Assembly (NCBI GenBank): GCA_012735535.1
Contig: JAAYHC010000012.1
Location: 12,059-76,058, forward strand
Direction of reading: 5' to 3'
DNA length: 64,000 bases
Origin: Bacillota bacterium
Lineage (GTDB): Bacteria; Bacillota; UBA5301
In this document: piece after piece, positions 21,443 to 33,995 of the stretch
How positions within the stretch are numbered: position 1 is the first letter of the stretch
How the letters are laid out: the number at the start of each line of letters is the position of its first letter
Translations under genes and position numbers: made by a program
The notes under the pieces: model-generated
The model's database searches: none
What the model saw: only the letters and a program-made list of their open reading frames with translations
Told to the model about the DNA's origin: nothing

Positions 21443-22282
21443 ATGTCAACAGATTGTGAAACTGGTGCACATTGTTCGAGCTGCCCCTCGGCGGGGACGT
21501 GCTCGGCAGCCCAACAGACGTTGTTGAGAGAGGCAAATGAATTTTCAAAAATCAAGCATGTGATTGCGGTAATGAGCGGCAAGGGCGGGGTCGGCAAGTC
21601 CTCTGTCTCCGCGCTCTTAGCCAGTCATCTCCAAAAAGCCGGTTATCAGGTGGGTCTATTAGATGCTGATATCACCGGTCCCAGTATCCCACGGATGTTC
21701 GGGATTACCGAAAAACTAAGAACCAATGTGGCGGGGATGCTGCCGAGCGAATCGGCGCAGGGGGTTAAGGTGATGTCCATCAACTTATTATTGCCGAATG
21801 AGGATGATCCCGTGCTTTGGCGCGGCCCGGTGATCGGTGGCGTAATCGAACAGTTTTGGACCGATGTGATCTGGGGTGAGCTTGATTATTTGGTCGTTGA
21901 CCTCCCGCCGGGAACGGGTGATGCACCTTTGACGGTGATGCAGTCATTGCCCTTAAAAGGCCTGATTGTCGTGACCTCGCCGCAGGAGTTGGCGGTCATG
22001 GTTGTGAGGAAAGCTATTAAAATGGCTGAAATGATGAACCAGCCGATTTTAGGCGTTTTCGAAAATATGGCCTATTTAGAGTGTCCGCATTGTGAGGAGC
22101 CGGTCTACCTTTTTGGGCAAGGCAAAGCGCAGGCGATGGCTGCCGAATATAATCTGCCGTTTTTGGGCTCTTTACCGATTGATCCGGCCCTGGCCGAACT
22201 GTGCGACCAGGGCAGGGTTGAGGAGTATGAGTCCGAACTCTTTGCTCAAGCGGCCAAGCAGATCGCTGCACAACTCGACTAA
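21443..22282 (+). CDS. Mrp/NBP35 (ApbC) family Fe-S cluster carrier ATPase with Cys-rich N-terminal extension
   Basis: Deviant Walker A GKGGVGKSS. CxxC near the C-terminus (CPHCEE). N-terminal CETGAHCSSCPSAGTC. Confidence 0.8.
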   Translation: MSTDCETGAHCSSCPSAGTCSAAQQTLLREANEFSKIKHVIAVMSGKGGVGKSSVSALLASHLQKAGYQVGLLDADITGPSIPRMFGITEKLRTNVAGMLPSESAQGVKVMSINLLLPNEDDPVLWRGPVIGGVIEQFWTDVIWGELDYLVVDLPPGTGDAPLTVMQSLPLKGLIVVTSPQELAVMVVRKAIKMAEMMNQPILGVFENMAYLECPHCEEPVYLFGQGKAQAMAAEYNLPFLGSLPIDPALAELCDQGRVEEYESELFAQAAKQIAAQLD

Positions 22283-25971: not shown

Positions 25972-26475
25972 TTACCGCAAAGAAACCTCCAAGGTGATTT
26001 CGATAGCATCGGTAATCCGGATTGAGCGAACCCTTATGGTCCAGGTGCTTTGTTCTATTGCGATCCGCTGGCCGTCGAGGGATTGCTCTAACAACAACGG
26101 GTCCAACTGGGCCAGTTCCTTGCCGATATGGGGGTTCAACCGTTTTTTCACCTCCTCCTCGACGGCGCTCTGCACATAGTCAGGGGGATCTCCCCGAAAG
26201 AGCAGGTTAATCCTATCACTACGTACCTTGCCGCGGGTCGAAAGGCTCTCCTGATACTTCTGAACCTGCTGACGTAGTGAGTTTAGTTCCATCTCCAAAC
26301 GCTGGCACTCTTGGGTTAAGCGGTGGATTTGGTTAATGCCGACCGGATACGTTACAAAAGCGCCGATCAGCACACCGGTGCAGAAAATCGCCAGCAGCGA
26401 ACTAAGCCGGTGCGCTGACAGAGTGATACACGGCCTTTTCAGCCGATTCTGAGCATTGTGGATAGTAACCACCAC
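25972..26475 (-). CDS. ytrI: Sporulation membrane protein YtrI-like (N-terminal TM + coiled coil)
   Basis: Downstream of the ytrH-like gene in a different frame. Reads RLKRP - TM (LSSLLAIFCTGVLIGAF) - coiled coil (ECQRLEMELNSLRQQVQKYQ). Only GTG starts are available (26472-26481). The upstream part of the 267-aa track ORF is read-through. Confidence 0.4.
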   Translation of the reverse strand: MVVTIHNAQNRLKRPCITLSAHRLSSLLAIFCTGVLIGAFVTYPVGINQIHRLTQECQRLEMELNSLRQQVQKYQESLSTRGKVRSDRINLLFRGDPPDYVQSAVEEEVKKRLNPHIGKELAQLDPLLLEQSLDGQRIAIEQSTWTIRVRSIRITDAIEITLEVSLR

Positions 26476-26765
26476 CCGCACCAGGTTCCAAGGGCCGCAC
26501 TGGTGAATGTACCTAGGTGTTTTAGGAGCAGGTAAAAGTCGCCGGTCAATCCGCCTTCCAAAGCTTCCAAAAATGAAAAGGTGCCGCCCATCGCAGCTGC
26601 CATCGCCCAAATACGCAGCGACCGCCCGACCTCCAGCATCGTTACGACCGGACTGCCGGTGGTGAAATAGGCGATGAGCCCACAGACCCAGGCTGCCCCG
26701 GTAATCATGCCGAATGCCGAACCGAACGGGAGCAAAATGGTTTTCAGTGTTGCCGATGTGATCAT
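26439..26765 (-). CDS. ytrH: Sporulation membrane protein YtrH-like
   Basis: 108 aa and Gly-rich, with 4 TM helices. SLRIWAMAAAMGGTF resembles the B. subtilis YtrH core. Confidence 0.5.
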   Translation of the reverse strand: MITSATLKTILLPFGSAFGMITGAAWVCGLIAYFTTGSPVVTMLEVGRSLRIWAMAAAMGGTFSFLEALEGGLTGDFYLLLKHLGTFTSAALGTWCGWWLLSTMLRIG

Positions 26766-26951
26766 TCTCGCTCACCCGTACTATGACTATGGAGCCGACA
26801 GGAAGGATATGTGAAATAGGTGAAAGTGCAAGCTAAGGGAGGCGGTAAGTAGTCGGCTCGTTTACTTGAAAGGTCAAACCGGAGTATCACCTGGCGAGCA
26901 GAGAAGGATAATATACACGGGATGTTTTAGCCTTGGCGCGGGGGCTTTACT

Positions 26952-27428
26952 ATGAGTGCACGCAAAATGCTCATTGTCGGTGGGCTGGCGATGTTAACGC
27001 TATCGATGGTCTATGGATCGATCATCGCTACCTTTTACTTGGACCGCTTCGCCCAAGAGCGCAAAAGCGCTTTGGCCAACGGTTTCCTCGATCAACTGGC
27101 CGGTGAGGTCAATGCTGCCAGGTATGAGCAAGCGCTGCGGACGGCCGGGCAGCATCGCAGCAGCCACTCCCACTTGTCTAACGTCGGCTTGATCGCCCTA
27201 GCCATTGGAATCGGAACTCCATATTTCAACCTCTCCGAACGCGTGCTGAAAATTACCGGGGCCGCCTTTTTGCTGGGGGGTATCATCCTACCCTTGGGTG
27301 TCTTTCTGGAACCGGTCTATCATCAGGAAATAGGGAGCTTGATTGCCATGATCGGTGGGGTTTTAGTCACCATGGCCACGGCGGTATTTCTGGTGGGGGC
27401 CTGTCGGGCCAAAGGCACCACCGATTAG
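26952..27428 (+). CDS. Membrane protein (hypothetical)
   Basis: 158 aa with 4 hydrophobic helices. Confidence 0.4.
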   Translation: MSARKMLIVGGLAMLTLSMVYGSIIATFYLDRFAQERKSALANGFLDQLAGEVNAARYEQALRTAGQHRSSHSHLSNVGLIALAIGIGTPYFNLSERVLKITGAAFLLGGIILPLGVFLEPVYHQEIGSLIAMIGGVLVTMATAVFLVGACRAKGTTD

Positions 27429-27500
27429 CCGATTTGTGGATATTCCCTGGCTGATCGCGATAAAATAGGACGGAAAAAGCGTAAAAGGGAATGGTGACAG

Positions 27501-29417
27501 ATGGCCGATAGAATACCCCATTATGCCGGTCGGGTTAGTGTACACGACTCGGTCCAACAGATGTATGAGCGCATTCGCGCTGATGGTTTGTCCAACGTTT
27601 TTGACCGTTTTGACCCTCAAGCCAAGATCAGGTGTAACTTTTGTGCGGAAGGAGTCAGCTGCCAGCTTTGTACGAATGGTCCTTGCCGGATTTCCGAGCG
27701 CGCCGAGGCGATTCTCGGCGTTTGCGGCATCGACCGCAATGCGATGGCAATGCGGGATATGCTTCTGCGCAATGCTATGGGAACTTCAACTTATACTCAT
27801 CATGCCTATGAGGCCTTCCGTACGCTCAAATCGACGGCCGTCGGCAAAACGCCTTTTAAAATCACCGACCAGGCCAAACTCATTGATTTTGCCAAATCCT
27901 TGGACGTTGATACCTCAGGCAAGCCCGAAGATGTGGCGATTCGGCTCGCCGATTTTCTCATCGGGCACTTGAGTCATGATTATGATGAGCCTTCCAAATT
28001 GATCGAGGTTTATGCTCCCTCTGCGCGGCAGAAGGTCTGGCGAGACCTAGCGATCTTTCCGGCCGGGGTCATGCATGAGATCAAGGACGCAGTAGCCAGT
28101 TGTTTGACCAACGTCGACGGCGATTTCTTTTCCCTGGCGCGCAAGGCTTTACGGCTAGGCATTGCCACCATTTACGGAGCACAAATACCTCTGGAGTGGG
28201 TAACCGACATCATGTTTGGCACCCCGATGCCACATGAGGTCGAGACTGACTTGGGGATCCTTGATCCGGATTATGTTAACATTCTGTTTAACGGGCATGA
28301 ACCCTGGGTTGGTTTTGCAACGATCATTGCCGCCAGGGAACCGCATCAGCAAGAACGAGCCAGACAAGCGGGGGCTAAAGGCATTAGGGTCATCGGCTCG
28401 ATCGAAAGCGGTCAAGAAGTACTGCAACGGATGGCTACCGATGAGGTTTTCGCCGGGCTCATCGGTAACTGGCTGGTGATCGAGCCTGCTCTGGCAACCG
28501 GGGCGGTTGATGTCTTTGCGATGGACGAAAACTGCTCGCCGCCGTGGTTAGCACCGTATGCAGAAAAGTATCAGTCGACTTTGGTTGCGGTCTCCGATCT
28601 GGTCCGGATGCCGGGGGTAAGGATCCATCTAGATTACAAACCGCCGGAAGCTGCCAATATCGCGGCCAAACTAATCGATTTGGGTATTGCAAACTTTATC
28701 AAGCGTCGGGAGCGCCGGATCAAAGCCGTTGTACCGCCACAGAAGCAAAAAGCGGTCGCCGGTTTCTCGCCGGAAGCAGTCCTCCAAGCTATTGGCGGCA
28801 CACCTGATCCGCTGATTGACCTGTTGAAGGCGAATAAAATCAAGGGTGTCGTTGGCTTGGTCAACTGTACCACGCTCGCCAACGGTCCCCATGATTATCT
28901 GACGGTAAACATCACCAAGGAACTCATCAAGCGCAATATTCTCGTCGTGACCGGTGGTTGCGGTGCGCATGGCTTGGAGGTCGCGGGCTTATGCAGTTTG
29001 GAGGCGGCTGAATTAGCTGGGGCCGGACTCAAGGAGGTCTGCCAAAGCCTAGGTATTCCGCCGGTCTTGCCCTTCGGGACTTGCACGGACACCGGACGAA
29101 TTTCGCATTTAGTCACCGTCTTGGCCAACCACCTCGGAGTCGACACGGCAGACTTGCCGGTGGCGATCACCGCCCCACAGTACCTGGAGCAAAAAGCCAC
29201 CATTGATGCGCTTTTTGCCTTGGCGTACGGGCTCTATACCCACCTGTCGCCAACACCTCCGGTCACCGGGGGACCGGACTTGGTCAGGTTGTTAACTGAG
29301 GAGCTCGAAGGGATTACCGGTGGCAAGGTAGGATTGAGCGATGATCCGGTCAAAGCGGCGGATGGCATCGAGGAGCATATCAACAAAAAGCGGGCAGCAT
29401 TGGGATTGAGCGTCTGA
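27501..29417 (+). CDS. cooS: Anaerobic Ni-CODH catalytic subunit homologue (CooS family) with non-canonical C-cluster ligands
   Basis: N-terminal B/D-cluster Cys pattern CNFCAEGVSCQLCTNGPCRI. Conserved CooS blocks ILFGTPMP, NGHEP, VAGFS, VTGGCGAHG and FGTCTD. The usual VGICCTGNE block is replaced by IGSIESGQE. Confidence 0.8.
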   Translation: MADRIPHYAGRVSVHDSVQQMYERIRADGLSNVFDRFDPQAKIRCNFCAEGVSCQLCTNGPCRISERAEAILGVCGIDRNAMAMRDMLLRNAMGTSTYTHHAYEAFRTLKSTAVGKTPFKITDQAKLIDFAKSLDVDTSGKPEDVAIRLADFLIGHLSHDYDEPSKLIEVYAPSARQKVWRDLAIFPAGVMHEIKDAVASCLTNVDGDFFSLARKALRLGIATIYGAQIPLEWVTDIMFGTPMPHEVETDLGILDPDYVNILFNGHEPWVGFATIIAAREPHQQERARQAGAKGIRVIGSIESGQEVLQRMATDEVFAGLIGNWLVIEPALATGAVDVFAMDENCSPPWLAPYAEKYQSTLVAVSDLVRMPGVRIHLDYKPPEAANIAAKLIDLGIANFIKRRERRIKAVVPPQKQKAVAGFSPEAVLQAIGGTPDPLIDLLKANKIKGVVGLVNCTTLANGPHDYLTVNITKELIKRNILVVTGGCGAHGLEVAGLCSLEAAELAGAGLKEVCQSLGIPPVLPFGTCTDTGRISHLVTVLANHLGVDTADLPVAITAPQYLEQKATIDALFALAYGLYTHLSPTPPVTGGPDLVRLLTEELEGITGGKVGLSDDPVKAADGIEEHINKKRAALGLSV

Positions 29418-29421
29418 CTAT

Positions 29422-29448
29422 GAGCCAGGGTCCGACAAGCCCTGGCTC
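29422..29448. terminator. Hairpin between convergent cooS and nitroreductase genes
   Basis: Perfect 9-bp stem GAGCCAGGG / CCCTGGCTC with a 9-nt loop. No U-tract. Confidence 0.4.
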
Positions 29449-29484
29449 TAACGGATAATTTCATTGGTTGAGGTATTTCCTAAC

Positions 29485-29994
29485 TCAAAACTTGTCGTAA
29501 GAGATAATCTCCTCTAAACTCTTTCTGACCTTGACCCGGGGTTTGTCGGCCGGATAACCCAGCGGCATCAGCTCAACCACTTTATACTCTTCCGGCACCT
29601 TGAGCAACTCTTTGACTCTGTTTTGGGAGAAATCGCCGATCCAACAAGTCCCCAGACCCTCGGCTACTGCAGCCAGCGCAATATGTTCCATGGCAATGCC
29701 CAAGTCGACTGCATAAGCCGGAACTTCGCAGGACATCAGGCGATCCGGATTGAGTGACACCCCGGCGATGATGACCGGAGCCTGGGCGATGAACATCTGA
29801 TGCCGGGCGGCTTGTGCTACCTGTTGTTTCAGTTCGGGATCCTTGACAATGATGAACTTCCAGTCCTGGCGATTGCTCGCCGATGGGGCGAGCCGGGCTG
29901 CCTCCAGAATCCGGCGCAGCACCTCGTCCGGGATGTCCTTGTCTTGGTAGGCGCGGACACTGTAGCGGACGCGAATGCACTCGTAAAGATCCAT
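29485..29994 (-). CDS. Nitroreductase-family protein
   Basis: RYSVRAY...APSASNRQDWKF near the N-terminus. AGGAGG RBS 10 nt before the ATG at 29994. Confidence 0.75.
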   Translation of the reverse strand: MDLYECIRVRYSVRAYQDKDIPDEVLRRILEAARLAPSASNRQDWKFIIVKDPELKQQVAQAARHQMFIAQAPVIIAGVSLNPDRLMSCEVPAYAVDLGIAMEHIALAAVAEGLGTCWIGDFSQNRVKELLKVPEEYKVVELMPLGYPADKPRVKVRKSLEEIISYDKF

Positions 29995-30121
29995 TGATAC
30001 TACCTCCTTGTAGATTGGCTCTTCTACAATACTATCCCCCAATCCTCTGCCGTTACAAGCAAGAAAAAGGGGCGGCCGTGTTGGCTCGCCCCACTTGATT
30101 CAGGTGCGTATGGTGAAAGGG

Positions 30122-31430
30122 TTAGTCGATGGTGTGTCGGCCTTCCGCCTTGACTTGGACAATATGCACCGAGCAGCTGATACAAGGATCATAGGCCCGC
30201 ACCAGTCGTTCAAAGAGAAATTGCAGCTCATCCTCTGTTTGACCTGCGTAAGAGGTCCCCAGATTCGTAATCTCCTGTTCGACGCTGGCTTGATTAAGAG
30301 CGGTCGGGGTAATAACATCCGCCGCAGTCACCAGCCCATTATCATCGAAGCTGAAGGAGTGATATAAAGTACCACGCGGGAGTTCGGTGGCGACGGTGCC
30401 TTGCCCGCTCCGCACAATGACTTCCGGTAACGGCTCGGCTTTGAGTCCCTCAGCCAAGATCTGGTCGCAGATTTCGATCGCCCGTTCGAGGGCATAAACC
30501 AATTCGACAACCTGTGCCAAGTTGTTATACAGTGCATTTTTCGAGGGAACGGGGATCTGCAATTTGGCTAAAGCTTCCGCAGCTTTGCCGGTTAGGCGGT
30601 CGCCGAAGAGGTTAATCCGGGCTAAAGCACCGACCATAAAGGGCAGACCATCGACGGTGCTGCGTTTGGCGTTTGAGTATTGGCTTTCCGTCTCTTGGAA
30701 AGCGGTCTTGTATTGGTCAACGGGAGCTTCACGCCCGTCTGAAAAGACGATCGTGTCGCCGAAGAAACCATAACCATCGCCGGCCGGTCTAATGGCCATG
30801 AAAAGGATCTCCTCTCCGGCATAGTCCGGAGTTGACAGCCCGGCGAGCAGTTCGACAATCCCATCCATGTCGGTTAAGCAGTTGGCCAGTTGCGCGCGGA
30901 GCTCGCGCACCTCGCTTTGGGACGGCAGCTTGCCGAAACCGCCAAAAGTTGTGTTGACGTGGTGGATCGCCCGGCCGCCGATCAATTCCTGCACGGCGTT
31001 GCCGGTCTTTTTAATTTGGAGCGCCTTGGTGACGACTTCTTTATGATCCTGCGCCATATCGGCAATACCGGCATAGCCGAGGTAATCCGGTAGGGCTAAT
31101 GCGAAAACATGCAGCGAGTGGCTCTCGATAAACATACCTAAGAAAGCGAGTTCGCGCAGGAGTTCGGTCTGTGCGGGGACCGGGATCCCCAAGGCTTTTT
31201 CGACCGCCATGTGGGCTGTGATTGCGTGCCCGGCGGAGCAAATGGCGCAGATGCGGCAGATGATTGCCGGAATTTCGGTGAAGGGACGGCCCAAGACCAC
31301 TCGCTCAAAGCCACGCATCCCCTCGAAGAGGTTCAGCTTGACATCGCGCACCGTATTCCCATCTAGCTCGACGGTTAGGGCACCATGCCCTTCAACTCTA
31401 CTGATGTGGTCTATGTGGATCCTAGCCAAC
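30122..31430 (-). CDS. hydA: [NiFe]-hydrogenase large (alpha) subunit, group 3b-like
   Basis: N-terminal L1 motif RICAICSAGH and C-terminal L2 motif DPCISCSVH. TTG start with a perfect AGGAGG 9 nt upstream. Overlaps the small-subunit stop. Confidence 0.85.
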
Positions 31431-32117
31431 TTGGGTCCCCTCCTTCTCATAAGCTTTGCCGCTAAAGAGTGCAAGCCGCTGCCGAACTTCGTTCACACTA
31501 AACCCGTGCTTTTCGAGAATTTGTCTGGCGGATACGTAGTTTGGATCATGCGAAGCACCGCGACAGCCAAAACAAGCCCGGTTAAGGCTCGGACAACGTG
31601 CGTTGCAGCCACCGGCGGTCAGCGGTCCGCAACAGATCTCCCCGGCCTGCAGCAGACAGTTGTTTTCTCTGATTGTGCATTCTAAGCAGACCGGATGTGG
31701 TAAAGACAACGGTAAGTCTCCGCGCAGGAGCGATGCTATCGCTTTGAGCAGCTGAGTTTTTTCGATCGGACAGCCTGGAATCGCATAATCTACCTGCACA
31801 TGATCTGAGAGCGGGGTGCCCATTCCGGAAAGATACGGAATGCCGCCCCAAACCGCACACGTGCCAATGGCGATTAAAATCTGGGCGCGCGAGCGGACAT
31901 CTTTGAGCGTCTCCAGATCCGATTCTTGGGTGACCGCACCCTCCACGAAGGCAACATCGAGTTCGCCCTCCGGGTTGTCGCTGTGAGCCATGACAAAGGA
32001 GCGGAGGTCTACCGCTTCGAGAATTGTCAGTAGTTCATCCTCACAGTTGACCAAAACCAACTGGTCGCCCGCGCACGAGGTCAAACCGTAGATGCCAATT
32101 CTAGGTTTTGCTTTCAT
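31422..32117 (-). CDS. hydD: [NiFe]-hydrogenase small (delta) subunit
   Basis: IGIYGLTSCAGD...GTCAVWGGIP...GCP is the Cys pattern of a proximal Fe-S cluster. AGGAGGAGGAGG RBS. Confidence 0.8.
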   Translation of the reverse strand: MKAKPRIGIYGLTSCAGDQLVLVNCEDELLTILEAVDLRSFVMAHSDNPEGELDVAFVEGAVTQESDLETLKDVRSRAQILIAIGTCAVWGGIPYLSGMGTPLSDHVQVDYAIPGCPIEKTQLLKAIASLLRGDLPLSLPHPVCLECTIRENNCLLQAGEICCGPLTAGGCNARCPSLNRACFGCRGASHDPNYVSARQILEKHGFSVNEVRQRLALFSGKAYEKEGTQVG

Positions 32118-32131
32118 GAGCCTCCTCCTCC

Positions 32132-32989
32132 TTAAATCATGTCCGGTAGGTTCAGCGCATCCCAATATGAGAAGACTGGACCATCCTGACAGCAGTATTT
32201 AGAACCGACGGCGCAGCAACCGCATTTGCCGATACCGCAGTGCATCTTGCGTTCCAGCGACATAAAGATGTCTTCGCCGGCGACTTTCTTAGCCAACAGC
32301 TCTTTGGTGACAAACTTATAGGCTACCGGCGGTACGCAGACGGCGGCGACGGTGTTTTTGGCCACTTCGATTTCGGAGAAGAGTTCGGTGACCAAACCGA
32401 CCCGGTAGGGCCAGACCGAAGTATCTCCGCGATCCAAGGTCACCAGGATGTTCAGGTCGCGGTGCTGCTCAAGAGTTTGCAGCTCCGCCGGGAAGAGAAC
32501 ATCTTGCAAGGAACGCGCCCCATACAAAAGGGTGACCTGATTAAATTGATCCCGATTGTCTAAGATGTAATACAACAGTGAGCGGACCGGAGCAAGCCCA
32601 ACTCCGCCGGCGATGATTAGGACGTCTTTGCCCTGCATATATTCGACCGGGAACCCATTGCCATATGGGCCGCGGATCCCAATCTCATCGGTGGGGACCA
32701 AGCGATGGAGCGATGAGGTTGACCGACCAACCTTGCGGATGCAGAACTCTAGGAGCCCTGGCCGGGTAGGCGAAGAACTGATCGAAATCGGTATTTCTCC
32801 GGTGCCCATCACGCTGATTTGGCAAAACTGACCCGGACGGTAGGTGAATTGCTCGCGCTCTTTCGGATCGATTAGCATTACTTGAAACAGCCGGGTATCG
32901 GGGGTTAGATCCCGGATATCGACGATCTTGGCCCGTGACGGTTGATATGGGTTTTGCACTTTAGCCAACGATTGATTCACTGCTTTCAC
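32132..32989 (-). CDS. hydG: Hydrogenase gamma subunit, FAD/NAD(P)-binding with [2Fe-2S] (sulfhydrogenase HydG / AsrB-like)
   Basis: Ferredoxin-reductase fold (RPGQF, GGVGLAP) and a C-terminal CGIGKCGCC cluster motif. Confidence 0.75.
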   Translation of the reverse strand: MKAVNQSLAKVQNPYQPSRAKIVDIRDLTPDTRLFQVMLIDPKEREQFTYRPGQFCQISVMGTGEIPISISSSPTRPGLLEFCIRKVGRSTSSLHRLVPTDEIGIRGPYGNGFPVEYMQGKDVLIIAGGVGLAPVRSLLYYILDNRDQFNQVTLLYGARSLQDVLFPAELQTLEQHRDLNILVTLDRGDTSVWPYRVGLVTELFSEIEVAKNTVAAVCVPPVAYKFVTKELLAKKVAGEDIFMSLERKMHCGIGKCGCCAVGSKYCCQDGPVFSYWDALNLPDMI

Positions 32990-33995
32990 CCCTTAACGAA
33001 GTTAATACCTGGCAGAAGTTGATTCCGGCGGCGCAGTGGGCTTGGCATCTGCCACAGCCGACACAGGCTGAAATGCCGTGACGCTCGACTGAGTCTTTAT
33101 GCTTGTGCATGATCCGTTGGCGGAGTCTGGCCCCGCGGGACGGACGGAAATTATGACCGCCGGCGACTAAGGCATAGTTCTTGTACAGACAGGAGGTCCA
33201 ACGCCGGCAGCGAGAACCGGACGCTCCATCCAAGTTAACTTCATCAAAAATTGTGAAGCAGTAGCAGGTTGGGCAGGTCATCGAACATCTGCCGCAGGCC
33301 AGACAATCCTTGGCCGTTTCCTCCCAGTGGGAGCTGTCCCACTCCAGAGCAAGGATATTGGAAAGCCCGGAGGTATCCAGCTTTTGCTCAAAGAGGTTAC
33401 TACGGGTGGCCAAAAAGACTTTATATTTGCGCAGCAGAATATCGCTGGTTTCTGCAAAAAGATCCTCGTTATCCAGAATCAGGTCGTTACCTTCGGTTGA
33501 ACCGATTTCGACGAGATAATTGTCGCCTAGGTCGGTGAGGAAAAGATCGAAGTGGTCGGTAACCAAATCCGTGCCCATCGAGTTGCAGAAACACATCTCA
33601 TCGGGGAGGCAACTCAAGCCGATAATGAGGGTTCGGTCGCGTTGAGCCTGGTAGTATGTGTCAACGTATCCTTCGAGAAAAACTTGATCAAGGCGTCTTA
33701 GTCCATGAATATCGCAGGGATGTAGGCCGAAGAGAATTCTGCGTTCCGAGCTGGTCGGCTTTTGCCGGAAACCTTCACCGGGAGCAAAGTCGAATAGCGC
33801 TTCTTCAGGAGGCAAGAAAAACTTTTTAGGTGGAAGTAAAGTTCGTTGATACTCAACGACAACTTCTGAGCTCGGATCATAGGCGGCAAAACTAATACTC
33901 GCTCCCGATTTTTGCGGGACGATCAGTTCATGTCCGACCGCGAGCCGGGCTAAGAATTCTTCCAGGTTAGAACCTGGCAACACTACCGTTCGCAC
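32961..33995 (-). CDS. hydB: Hydrogenase beta subunit, 4Fe-4S dicluster protein (HydB / AsrA-like)
   Basis: Cys motifs CLACGRCSMTCPTC and CVGCGRCQAHC. Confidence 0.7.
   Translation of the reverse strand: MRTVVLPGSNLEEFLARLAVGHELIVPQKSGASISFAAYDPSSEVVVEYQRTLLPPKKFFLPPEEALFDFAPGEGFRQKPTSSERRILFGLHPCDIHGLRRLDQVFLEGYVDTYYQAQRDRTLIIGLSCLPDEMCFCNSMGTDLVTDHFDLFLTDLGDNYLVEIGSTEGNDLILDNEDLFAETSDILLRKYKVFLATRSNLFEQKLDTSGLSNILALEWDSSHWEETAKDCLACGRCSMTCPTCYCFTIFDEVNLDGASGSRCRRWTSCLYKNYALVAGGHNFRPSRGARLRQRIMHKHKDSVERHGISACVGCGRCQAHCAAGINFCQVLTSLRGESSESIVG

Follow-up and report, generated by a model that had tools for sequence, protein, structure and literature searches.

What does a gene encode whose product aligns from end to end with the carbon monoxide dehydrogenases of the Ni,Fe type (CODHs) and has Glu in place of a Cys that ligates their active-site C-cluster? 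The question is raised by an open reading frame (ORF) in a 64,000-nt stretch of contig JAAYHC010000012.1 from a Bacillota bacterium. The whole stretch is called the window here, and its positions are used throughout. The gene was delimited as an ORF, by its match to Pfam PF03063 and by its alignment to the crystal structure 7b7q:

27501–29417, forward strand: cooS-V-type gene, CODH scaffold, 638 aa, ATG start.

A preliminary description, made from the letters of the sequence, had suggested that the product is a paralogue of CooS, from some minor clade, whose active site is altered or is not that of a CODH. The clade can be named: it is clade D, structural group D-1. We consider it very probable that the gene is an orthologue of CooS-V ('CODH-V') from this group and encodes a low-potential reductase, not a CODH. 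The assignment follows from the match to 7b7q, the identity of 16 of 16 checked residues, the invariance of those residues across the family, purifying selection and the solitary position of the gene. Orthology, ligand identity, family-wide invariance, selection and context are observed for the window gene itself; metal content and reactivity would be those of the crystallised CooS-V of Carboxydothermus hydrogenoformans (CooS-V_Ch).

CooS-V_Ch was crystallised by Jeoung et al. (Angew Chem 2022; PMC9311411) at resolutions of 1.2–1.35 Å (PDB 7B7Q, 7B7T, 7B95, 7B97 and 7B9A), as a 'deviant' protein that is annotated as a CODH and misses one cysteine of the C-cluster motif. Crystallography, electron paramagnetic resonance and activity assays established a non-CODH site in a dimer with the CODH fold. 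The site is Ni-free, and the residue at Cys295 (CODH-II numbering) is Glu, which those authors name a synapomorphy. The protein neither oxidises CO nor reduces CO2, and its reduction of hydroxylamine is slow (kcat 0.13 per s; kcat/KM 20 per M per s). Its active site is a redox-morphing [4Fe-3S-nO] hybrid cluster that toggles reversibly between reduced [4Fe-3S] and oxidised [4Fe-2S-S*-2O-2H2O] forms, the substrate channel to it being open in the reduced state only. Within the subclade Glu295 correlates with a Gly41-to-Cys exchange, by which the bridging D-cluster has Cys ligands only and is of the [2Fe-2S] and not the [4Fe-4S] type (PMC9311411). The Cys-to-Glu exchange had already been flagged by Inoue et al. 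in 2019 (PMC6344411), where the C. hydrogenoformans CooSV (WP_011342982) represents structural group D-1 (one figure legend says D-2) and where the catalytic-site residues of D-1, an additional Glu at the second position before the Lys included, are found to agree with those of hybrid cluster proteins (HCPs). A 2026 preprint (10.1101/2025.09.14.676152) places ChCODH-V in clade D.

The window protein matches PF03063 (Prismane/CODH) from end to end at 468.5 bits. Among solved structures its best HMMER match is 7b7q chain A (E 2.8e-287, 957 bits), the highest-scoring canonical CODH structure reaching 404 bits. The alignment to 7b7q pairs residues 9–636 with residues 2–629, 628 residues with zero gaps, at a constant numbering offset of +7. 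Identity to CooS-V_Ch is 412/628 (65.6%), computed with the 7b7q chain sequence taken from the printed alignment. All 16 of the cluster and active-site positions that we checked are identical, and so are 102 of the 132 positions that lie up to five residues from a ligand. The positions, with their equivalents and roles in CooS-V_Ch, are:

27633–27644, forward strand: codons of Cys45-x2-Cys48, equivalent to Cys38 and Cys41; D-cluster ligand (Cys48, and probably Cys45); present in 120/120 homologues.

27660–27725, forward strand: B-cluster [4Fe-4S] motif Cys54-x2-Cys57-x4-Cys62-x12-Cys75, equivalent to Cys47, Cys50, Cys55 and Cys68 (PMC9311411); present in 120/120 homologues.

28296–28298, forward strand: codon of His266, equivalent to His259 (CODH-II His261); exo Fe4 ligand in the reduced hybrid cluster (PMC9311411).

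28392–28418, forward strand: IGSIESGQE block, residues 298–306, placed by motif position and by alignment to 7b7q and three canonical CODHs; its Ile301-Glu302 is equivalent to Ile294-Glu295.

28404–28406, forward strand: codon of Glu302, which replaces CODH-II Cys295; the diagnostic CooS-V substitution.

28530–28535, forward strand: codons of Asn344-Cys345, equivalent to Asn337 (hydrogen bond to a water ligand) and Cys338 (Fe1 of the [2Fe-2S] subsite; PMC9311411).

28866–28868, forward strand: codon of Cys456, equivalent to Cys449, an Fe3 ligand (PMC9311411).

28959–28961, forward strand: codon of Cys487, equivalent to Cys480, an Fe2 ligand (PMC9311411).

29082–29084, forward strand: codon of Cys528, equivalent to Cys521, a persulfide when oxidised and the gate of the substrate channel (PMC9311411).

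29187–29195, forward strand: codons of Glu563-Gln564-Lys565; Glu563 is equivalent to Glu556 and to HCP Glu494, an Fe3 ligand (PMC9311411, PMC6344411), and Lys565 is the conserved Lys, Lys558 in CooS-V_Ch.

The good alignment with canonical Ni-CODHs that the preliminary description reported is borne out, since solved canonical structures align end to end with the window protein at 320–404 bits. The blocks it listed were all found at the expected spacing: NGHEP starts at residue 264, DENC at 342, VNCTT at 454, TGGCGAHG at 484, FGTCTD at 525 and QKAT at 564. The N-terminal Cys motif (CNFCAEGVSCQLCTNGPC, from residue 45) is present as well, but it is not the plain canonical motif, for it contains Cys48, which is specific to CooS-V. 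The claimed replacement of the canonical CC block by IGSIESGQE (from residue 298) also stood; 7b7q itself reads GSIESGQEV at this place. In HMMER alignments the 'CC' of the canonical CODHs 6t7j, 6elq and 6b6v faces Ile301-Glu302, without a gap in or adjoining the block in any of the three, so no Cys is regained at the Cys295 position by an indel. Nor does a CC dipeptide occur anywhere in the 638 aa. The equivalence of Glu302 and Cys295 was taken from these three alignments and from the structure-based correspondence of Cys295 (CODH-II) with Glu295 (CooS-V) in PMC9311411; Ile301 takes the place of CODH-II Cys294. The preliminary description had treated the Cys-Cys pair as ligating. A C-cluster ligand is indeed missing, Glu302 standing at Cys295, but only the second Cys of the pair is a ligand: the six listed in PMC9311411 include Cys295, and the first Cys is not among them. 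The canonical set of five Cys and one His is therefore reduced to five members (His266, Cys345, Cys456, Cys487 and Cys528), with Glu302 at the sixth position. A second diagnostic difference had been overlooked, namely Glu563, the HCP-like ligand two residues before the Lys, which stands opposite Ser in 6t7j, His in 6elq and Ser in 6b6v. The window protein has every defining feature of CooS-V and the D-1 group that can be tested in sequence. Nor does the substitution mark a clade of proven CODH activity, as the clade that carries it was shown to lack that activity (PMC9311411). The exchange is known already, from a prediction of 2019 and from the structures and biochemistry of 2022, and the window copy shows no departure from the type member.

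These features hold across the family. Of the candidates that were scored in a search of a 5.8-billion-protein collection, 2127 proteins reached E <= 1e-20. In the best 120 of the 2127 (66–100% identity) the 16 cluster and active-site residues are invariant, 120/120, and every named protein among these 120 is labelled 'anaerobic carbon-monoxide dehydrogenase catalytic subunit'. An identical protein (P0001) has a sole record, the 155-kb contig 914 of the Logan assembly SRR11356281. A scan of GTDB species genomes yielded 59 loci with CooS-V, which span Desulfofundulus, Thermincola, Natroniella, Sporomusa, Lutispora, Halanaerobiales, many metagenome-assembled genomes (MAGs) of Bacillota and one Methanosarcinales MAG. 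All 52 full-length locus copies have the complete 16-residue signature, down to 57% identity and with the archaeal MAG included, and the Ile-Glu pair (301–302) is invariant in 120/120 homologues and 56/56 locus copies. The closest genome copy, at 93% identity, is in an uncultured 'Bacilli' MAG (locus L001). Against it the window gene has dN 0.038, dS 1.11 and dN/dS 0.034, which indicates strong purifying selection on a gene that is not a relic; the same ratio against L007 is unusable, synonymous sites being saturated there.

Four loci (L007, L009, L011 and L047) belong to MAGs labelled Betaproteobacteria, Chitinophagales and Deltaproteobacteria (73–74% identity) and Methanosarcinales (57%, full signature); either horizontal transfer or binning contamination could account for them. 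Several other copies are damaged. In Neomoorella carbonis (L058, 10001–10728) cooS-V is cut to residues 1–242 and frameshifted, in Desulfofundulus thermosubterraneus (L059, 473–1610) residues ~193–422 are deleted and a frameshift is added, L031 (10001–11883) has a frameshift near residue 48, and in L054 (10001–11188) the match begins in mid-contig, at residue 240. Such damage, if it does not stem from faulty assembly, suggests that the gene is dispensable in some hosts.

If the window protein works as CooS-V_Ch does, it would be a homodimer on the CODH scaffold, with a [2Fe-2S] D-cluster bridging the subunits through Cys48 and probably Cys45, the latter (CooS-V Cys38) being our inference for the second ligand. 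Each subunit would hold one [4Fe-4S] B-cluster (Cys54, Cys57, Cys62 and Cys75) and, in the place of the C-cluster, a Ni-free Fe-S-oxo hybrid cluster with His266, Glu302, Cys345, Cys456, Cys487, Cys528 and Glu563 as ligands. Electrons of low potential would pass from the D-cluster to the B-cluster and on to the hybrid cluster. Reduction would convert the oxidised [4Fe-2S-S*-2O-2H2O] form to the open [4Fe-3S] form, the persulfide sulfur of Cys528 moving into the cluster and the substrate channel opening; a small oxidant would then reoxidise the cluster, as hydroxylamine does slowly in vitro. No CooC-type nickel insertion should be needed. Of the function, which the preliminary description called unknown, the metal site has been characterised in CooS-V_Ch (PMC9311411), and this leaves the physiological substrate, to which the window locus gives no clue.

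Four considerations weigh against reading the gene as a CooS-V reductase. The protein scores 816.4 bits against NCBIfam TIGR01702 (anaerobic CO dehydrogenase catalytic subunit equivalog; cutoff 478), and that score, taken by itself, would have it named a CODH. At 65.6% identity to CooS-V_Ch, second-shell differences could shift potentials or the substrate range. The hydroxylamine activity of CooS-V_Ch is very low, and 'reductase' is the hypothesis of the 2022 authors, drawn from the redox-gated channel (PMC9311411). The metal content and activity of the window protein, finally, are carried over to it by homology. On the first of these points, TIGR01702 does not separate CooS-V-type proteins from true CODHs. 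The HCP profiles do not claim the protein: TIGR01703 and NF003658 give 40.4 and 42.7 bits, below their cutoffs of 360.8 and 367, and their matches cover residues 414–602 only.

The profile score, the CODH scaffold, the five of six retained C-cluster ligands and the conserved Lys would also suit a working Ni,Fe-CODH in which Glu302, in the place of Cys, binds the pendant Fe and CO/CO2 interconversion is kept. We regard this as highly improbable. CooS-V_Ch has the identical ligand set and is Ni-free, and it neither oxidises CO nor reduces CO2 (PMC9311411). The CODH-II variants C295A and C295E are Ni-deficient and inactive with CO, and their NH2OH reductase activity is slightly raised, as cited in PMC9311411. 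The extra Glu563 is a ligand typical of hybrid clusters, and no cooC, cooT or cooJ maturase gene was found among the scanned ORFs of the window; such Ni-insertion genes in the operon (CooC/CooT/CooJ) are typical of the active clades A, E and F, though not strictly defining. That the gene is the decaying, now functionless relic of a former CODH gene has even less to recommend it. Degraded relatives exist, as in the copy truncated after residue 242 and frameshifted (L058) and the one with an internal deletion (L059), and deletion of a clade D gene in Clostridium autoethanogenum is cited in 10.1101/2025.09.14.676152 as having little effect. The window ORF, however, is intact, its dN/dS against L001 is 0.034 at a dS of ~1.1, and the 16 positions are invariant over 120 homologue clusters and 52 full-length copies from bacteria and one archaeon. 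The selection signal effectively refutes the relic.

More weight, though it is still unlikely, belongs to the idea that the CooS-V hybrid cluster serves redox or stress sensing or signalling, its rearrangement being the signal in place of substrate turnover. Turnover in vitro is very slow, and the redox-dependent restructuring of the CooS-V_Ch cluster is strong and reversible (PMC9311411). For CooS-V the literature proposes either a defence against stress, like that of HCPs, or the sensing of redox state. For clade D, where regulators, at ~10%, are the only recurrent neighbours, the 2026 survey proposes a role in sensing or regulation; by the preprint's own account the role is experimentally unproven (10.1101/2025.09.14.676152). 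In our material no family apart from CooS-V itself is more frequent than the IclR-type regulators, present in 8 of 60 regions (the 59 loci and the window). Yet these genes lie 1.9–7.6 kb from cooS-V, and the one in the window overlaps an M28 peptidase gene, at the start of that gene, and not cooS-V. CooS-V has no output domain, whether fused or adjacent, and the conserved electron chain from D-cluster to B-cluster to active site, together with the gated channel, fits an enzyme better. With chain and channel conserved and neither an output domain nor a tightly linked regulator, we rank an enzyme, the reductase, above a pure sensor.

The surroundings of the gene agree with what is published for its clade. 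Clade D genes are solitary in 64% of cases, with no clear pattern in their neighbourhood and no link to C1 metabolism (10.1101/2025.09.14.676152), and the lack of conserved neighbours at our loci reproduces this solitary pattern. The preliminary description had found no cooC, cooF or acs partner, and in agreement with it cooC, cooF, cooT, cooJ and acs are all absent from the 20 nearest flanking ORFs (Pfam scans) and from the Pfam list of the window. By tblastn the 64-kb window contains no second Prismane-family gene, whether CODH or HCP; published CooS-V host genomes encode at least one further, canonical CODH (PMC9311411). Conserved partners were sought by tblastn of 18 window neighbours against the 59 loci and by all-versus-all clustering of the 804 ORFs from these loci together with the window region. 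The neighbourhood is common to L001 alone among the 59 loci, and we rejected a conserved partner gene as evidence of function. The local features are:

21443–22282, forward strand: Mrp/NUBPL-type iron-sulfur-cluster carrier ATPase with a Cys-rich N-terminus (PF10609, 327 bits).

25972–26775, reverse strand: sporulation genes, YtrH (PF14034, 108 aa) and an ORF containing YtrI_C, which overlap a 267-aa ORF of the program-made list.

27485–27497, forward strand: purine-rich stretch AAGGGAATGGTGA, 3–15 nt before the ATG of cooS-V, read from the sequence as Shine-Dalgarno-like, its role being presumed.

29422–29448, forward strand: 10-bp GC-rich hairpin after the stop codon, found by folding the spacer between the convergent cooS-V and nitroreductase genes.

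29485–30042, reverse strand: nitroreductase-family flavoprotein gene (PF00881), convergent with cooS-V.

30122–33995, reverse strand: four-gene group-3-type NiFe hydrogenase cluster, syntenic with cooS-V in L001 only.

30122–31474, reverse strand: hydrogenase large subunit.

31422–32165, reverse strand: hydrogenase small subunit.

32132–32989, reverse strand: hydrogenase FAD/NAD-binding subunit.

32961–33995, reverse strand: hydrogenase Fer4_22 iron-sulfur subunit.

The gene had been described as monocistronic, which is right for its downstream side, where a convergent gene follows and a hairpin stands after the stop. Upstream it is less certain, because an ORF on the same strand, for a membrane protein of 153–158 aa, ends 72 bp before cooS-V, and the two may be co-transcribed. 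As a subunit of CooS-V this ORF was rejected; it has no Pfam match and is conserved in L001 only. The spacer with the hairpin (67 bp; 70 nt as folded) folds at -25.8 kcal/mol (z = -4.08), and none of 200 shuffles was equally stable. The hairpin is likely to mark the end of the transcript, although it is followed by no T-run and so is not a textbook intrinsic terminator; a consensus promoter and terminator scan of 26700–30200 did not include it among its terminators. The promoter-like sites in that interval numbered 3, against 2.4 expected from shuffles, which is no excess, and a search of the whole window with Rfam, aimed at riboswitches and leaders, returned zero matches.

Further upstream the Mrp/NUBPL-type ATPase, 5 kb from cooS-V and syntenic in L001 only, is the only P-loop ATPase nearby, and it is not CooC. 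An HD-domain protein is also encoded upstream, as is the IclR regulator. The YtrH and YtrI genes identify the host as a spore-forming member of the Bacillota, and the 267-aa ORF that they overlap is probably not a real gene model.

Downstream, the nitroreductase and the hydrogenase could be imagined to form with CooS-V an H2-driven, low-potential module that reduces N-O compounds or other oxidised small molecules in the window organism and that of L001. We think this very doubtful: the idea is based on adjacency, the arrangement occurs in the window and in the 93%-identical L001 only, and the genes lie on the opposite strand. If true, such a module would offer, for the first time, an approach from physiology to the substrate of CooS-V proteins. 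The hydrogenase cluster resembles in its arrangement the NAD(P)-linked 'sulfhydrogenase'-like enzymes. L045, too, has a nitroreductase gene (35% identity) no more than 4 kb from cooS-V; these are too few cases for a link.

Other loci show neighbours of their own. PLP-enzyme-like genes flank cooS-V in seven of them (L014, L020, L023, L025, L027, L028 and L052); their families, named by eye, are class-III aminotransferase-like (~457 aa), threonine-dehydratase-like (~414 aa) and aspartate-aminotransferase-like (~397 aa), and in that subset they are accompanied by an IclR regulator and by an ABC ATPase that has CBS domains. The set could be a functional cluster or reflect synteny within a lineage. 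Near cooS-V in L016, L019, L021, L032 and L035 a Cys-rich iron-sulfur protein of ~212 aa is encoded, which is absent from the window; in L019 its gene starts 140 bp downstream of cooS-V on the same strand. In those lineages it could be an electron-transfer partner of CooS-V.

The practical weight of the finding is one of caution in annotation, as pipelines will mislabel CooS-V-type genes as CO dehydrogenase. Because both TIGR01702 and the database names do so, CO oxidation or CO2 reduction inferred from the window gene would be wrong. A check of one residue separates CooS-V from true CODHs, Glu and not Cys at CODH-II position 295, backed by Cys41 and Glu556. The cellular task of CooS-V proteins is a question no more testable here than at the many loci already available.

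Among known systems the HCPs ('prismane protein', hydroxylamine reductase, classes I–III) share the PF03063 family with the window protein and, according to the literature, resemble it in a [4Fe-3S]/Fe-S-O cluster that changes form with redox state, in a persulfide on Cys and in a Glu ligand at the second position before the Lys. CooS-V differs from them in CODH-like details of the fold, a dimer interface with a bridging cluster and its surface loops, and Glu295 of CooS-V is out of register with the HCP Glu ligand (PMC10502027). The canonical monofunctional Ni,Fe-CODHs (CODH-II_Ch, 1SU8; 6T7J, 6ELQ and 6B6V) have in common with the window protein the three-domain scaffold, the B-cluster motif, the conserved Lys and all but one of the six C-cluster ligand positions. 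Where they have Cys294/Cys295 and a Ser or His, the window protein has Ile/Glu and Glu563, and by homology it would contain a hybrid Fe/S/O cluster and no Ni and would lack CO/CO2 activity. The engineered CODH-II variants C295A and C295E are changed at the same single ligand position as the window protein but are without its co-evolved Cys41 and Glu556 features. The Desulfovibrio vulgaris CODH (6B6V series) made the Gly-to-Cys exchange independently and, as far as PMC9311411 relates, likewise has a [2Fe-2S] D-cluster; it differs in keeping the CC block and a true C-cluster, and it scores 378 bits against the window protein.

CooS-V_Ch is the nearest of these systems. The window protein is longer by seven residues at the N-terminus, differs at about one third of its positions and has unrelated neighbours, and it comes from a metagenome-assembled, uncultured, spore-forming member of the Bacillota (~53% GC), where it is known as a sequence. 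The two proteins share the hybrid-cluster ligands (the His, Glu295, Cys338, Cys449, Cys480, Cys521 and Glu556 in CooS-V_Ch numbering) together with Asn337, the Gly41-to-Cys exchange, the B-cluster motif C-x2-C-x4-C-x12-C and a solitary gene context free of C1-metabolism genes.

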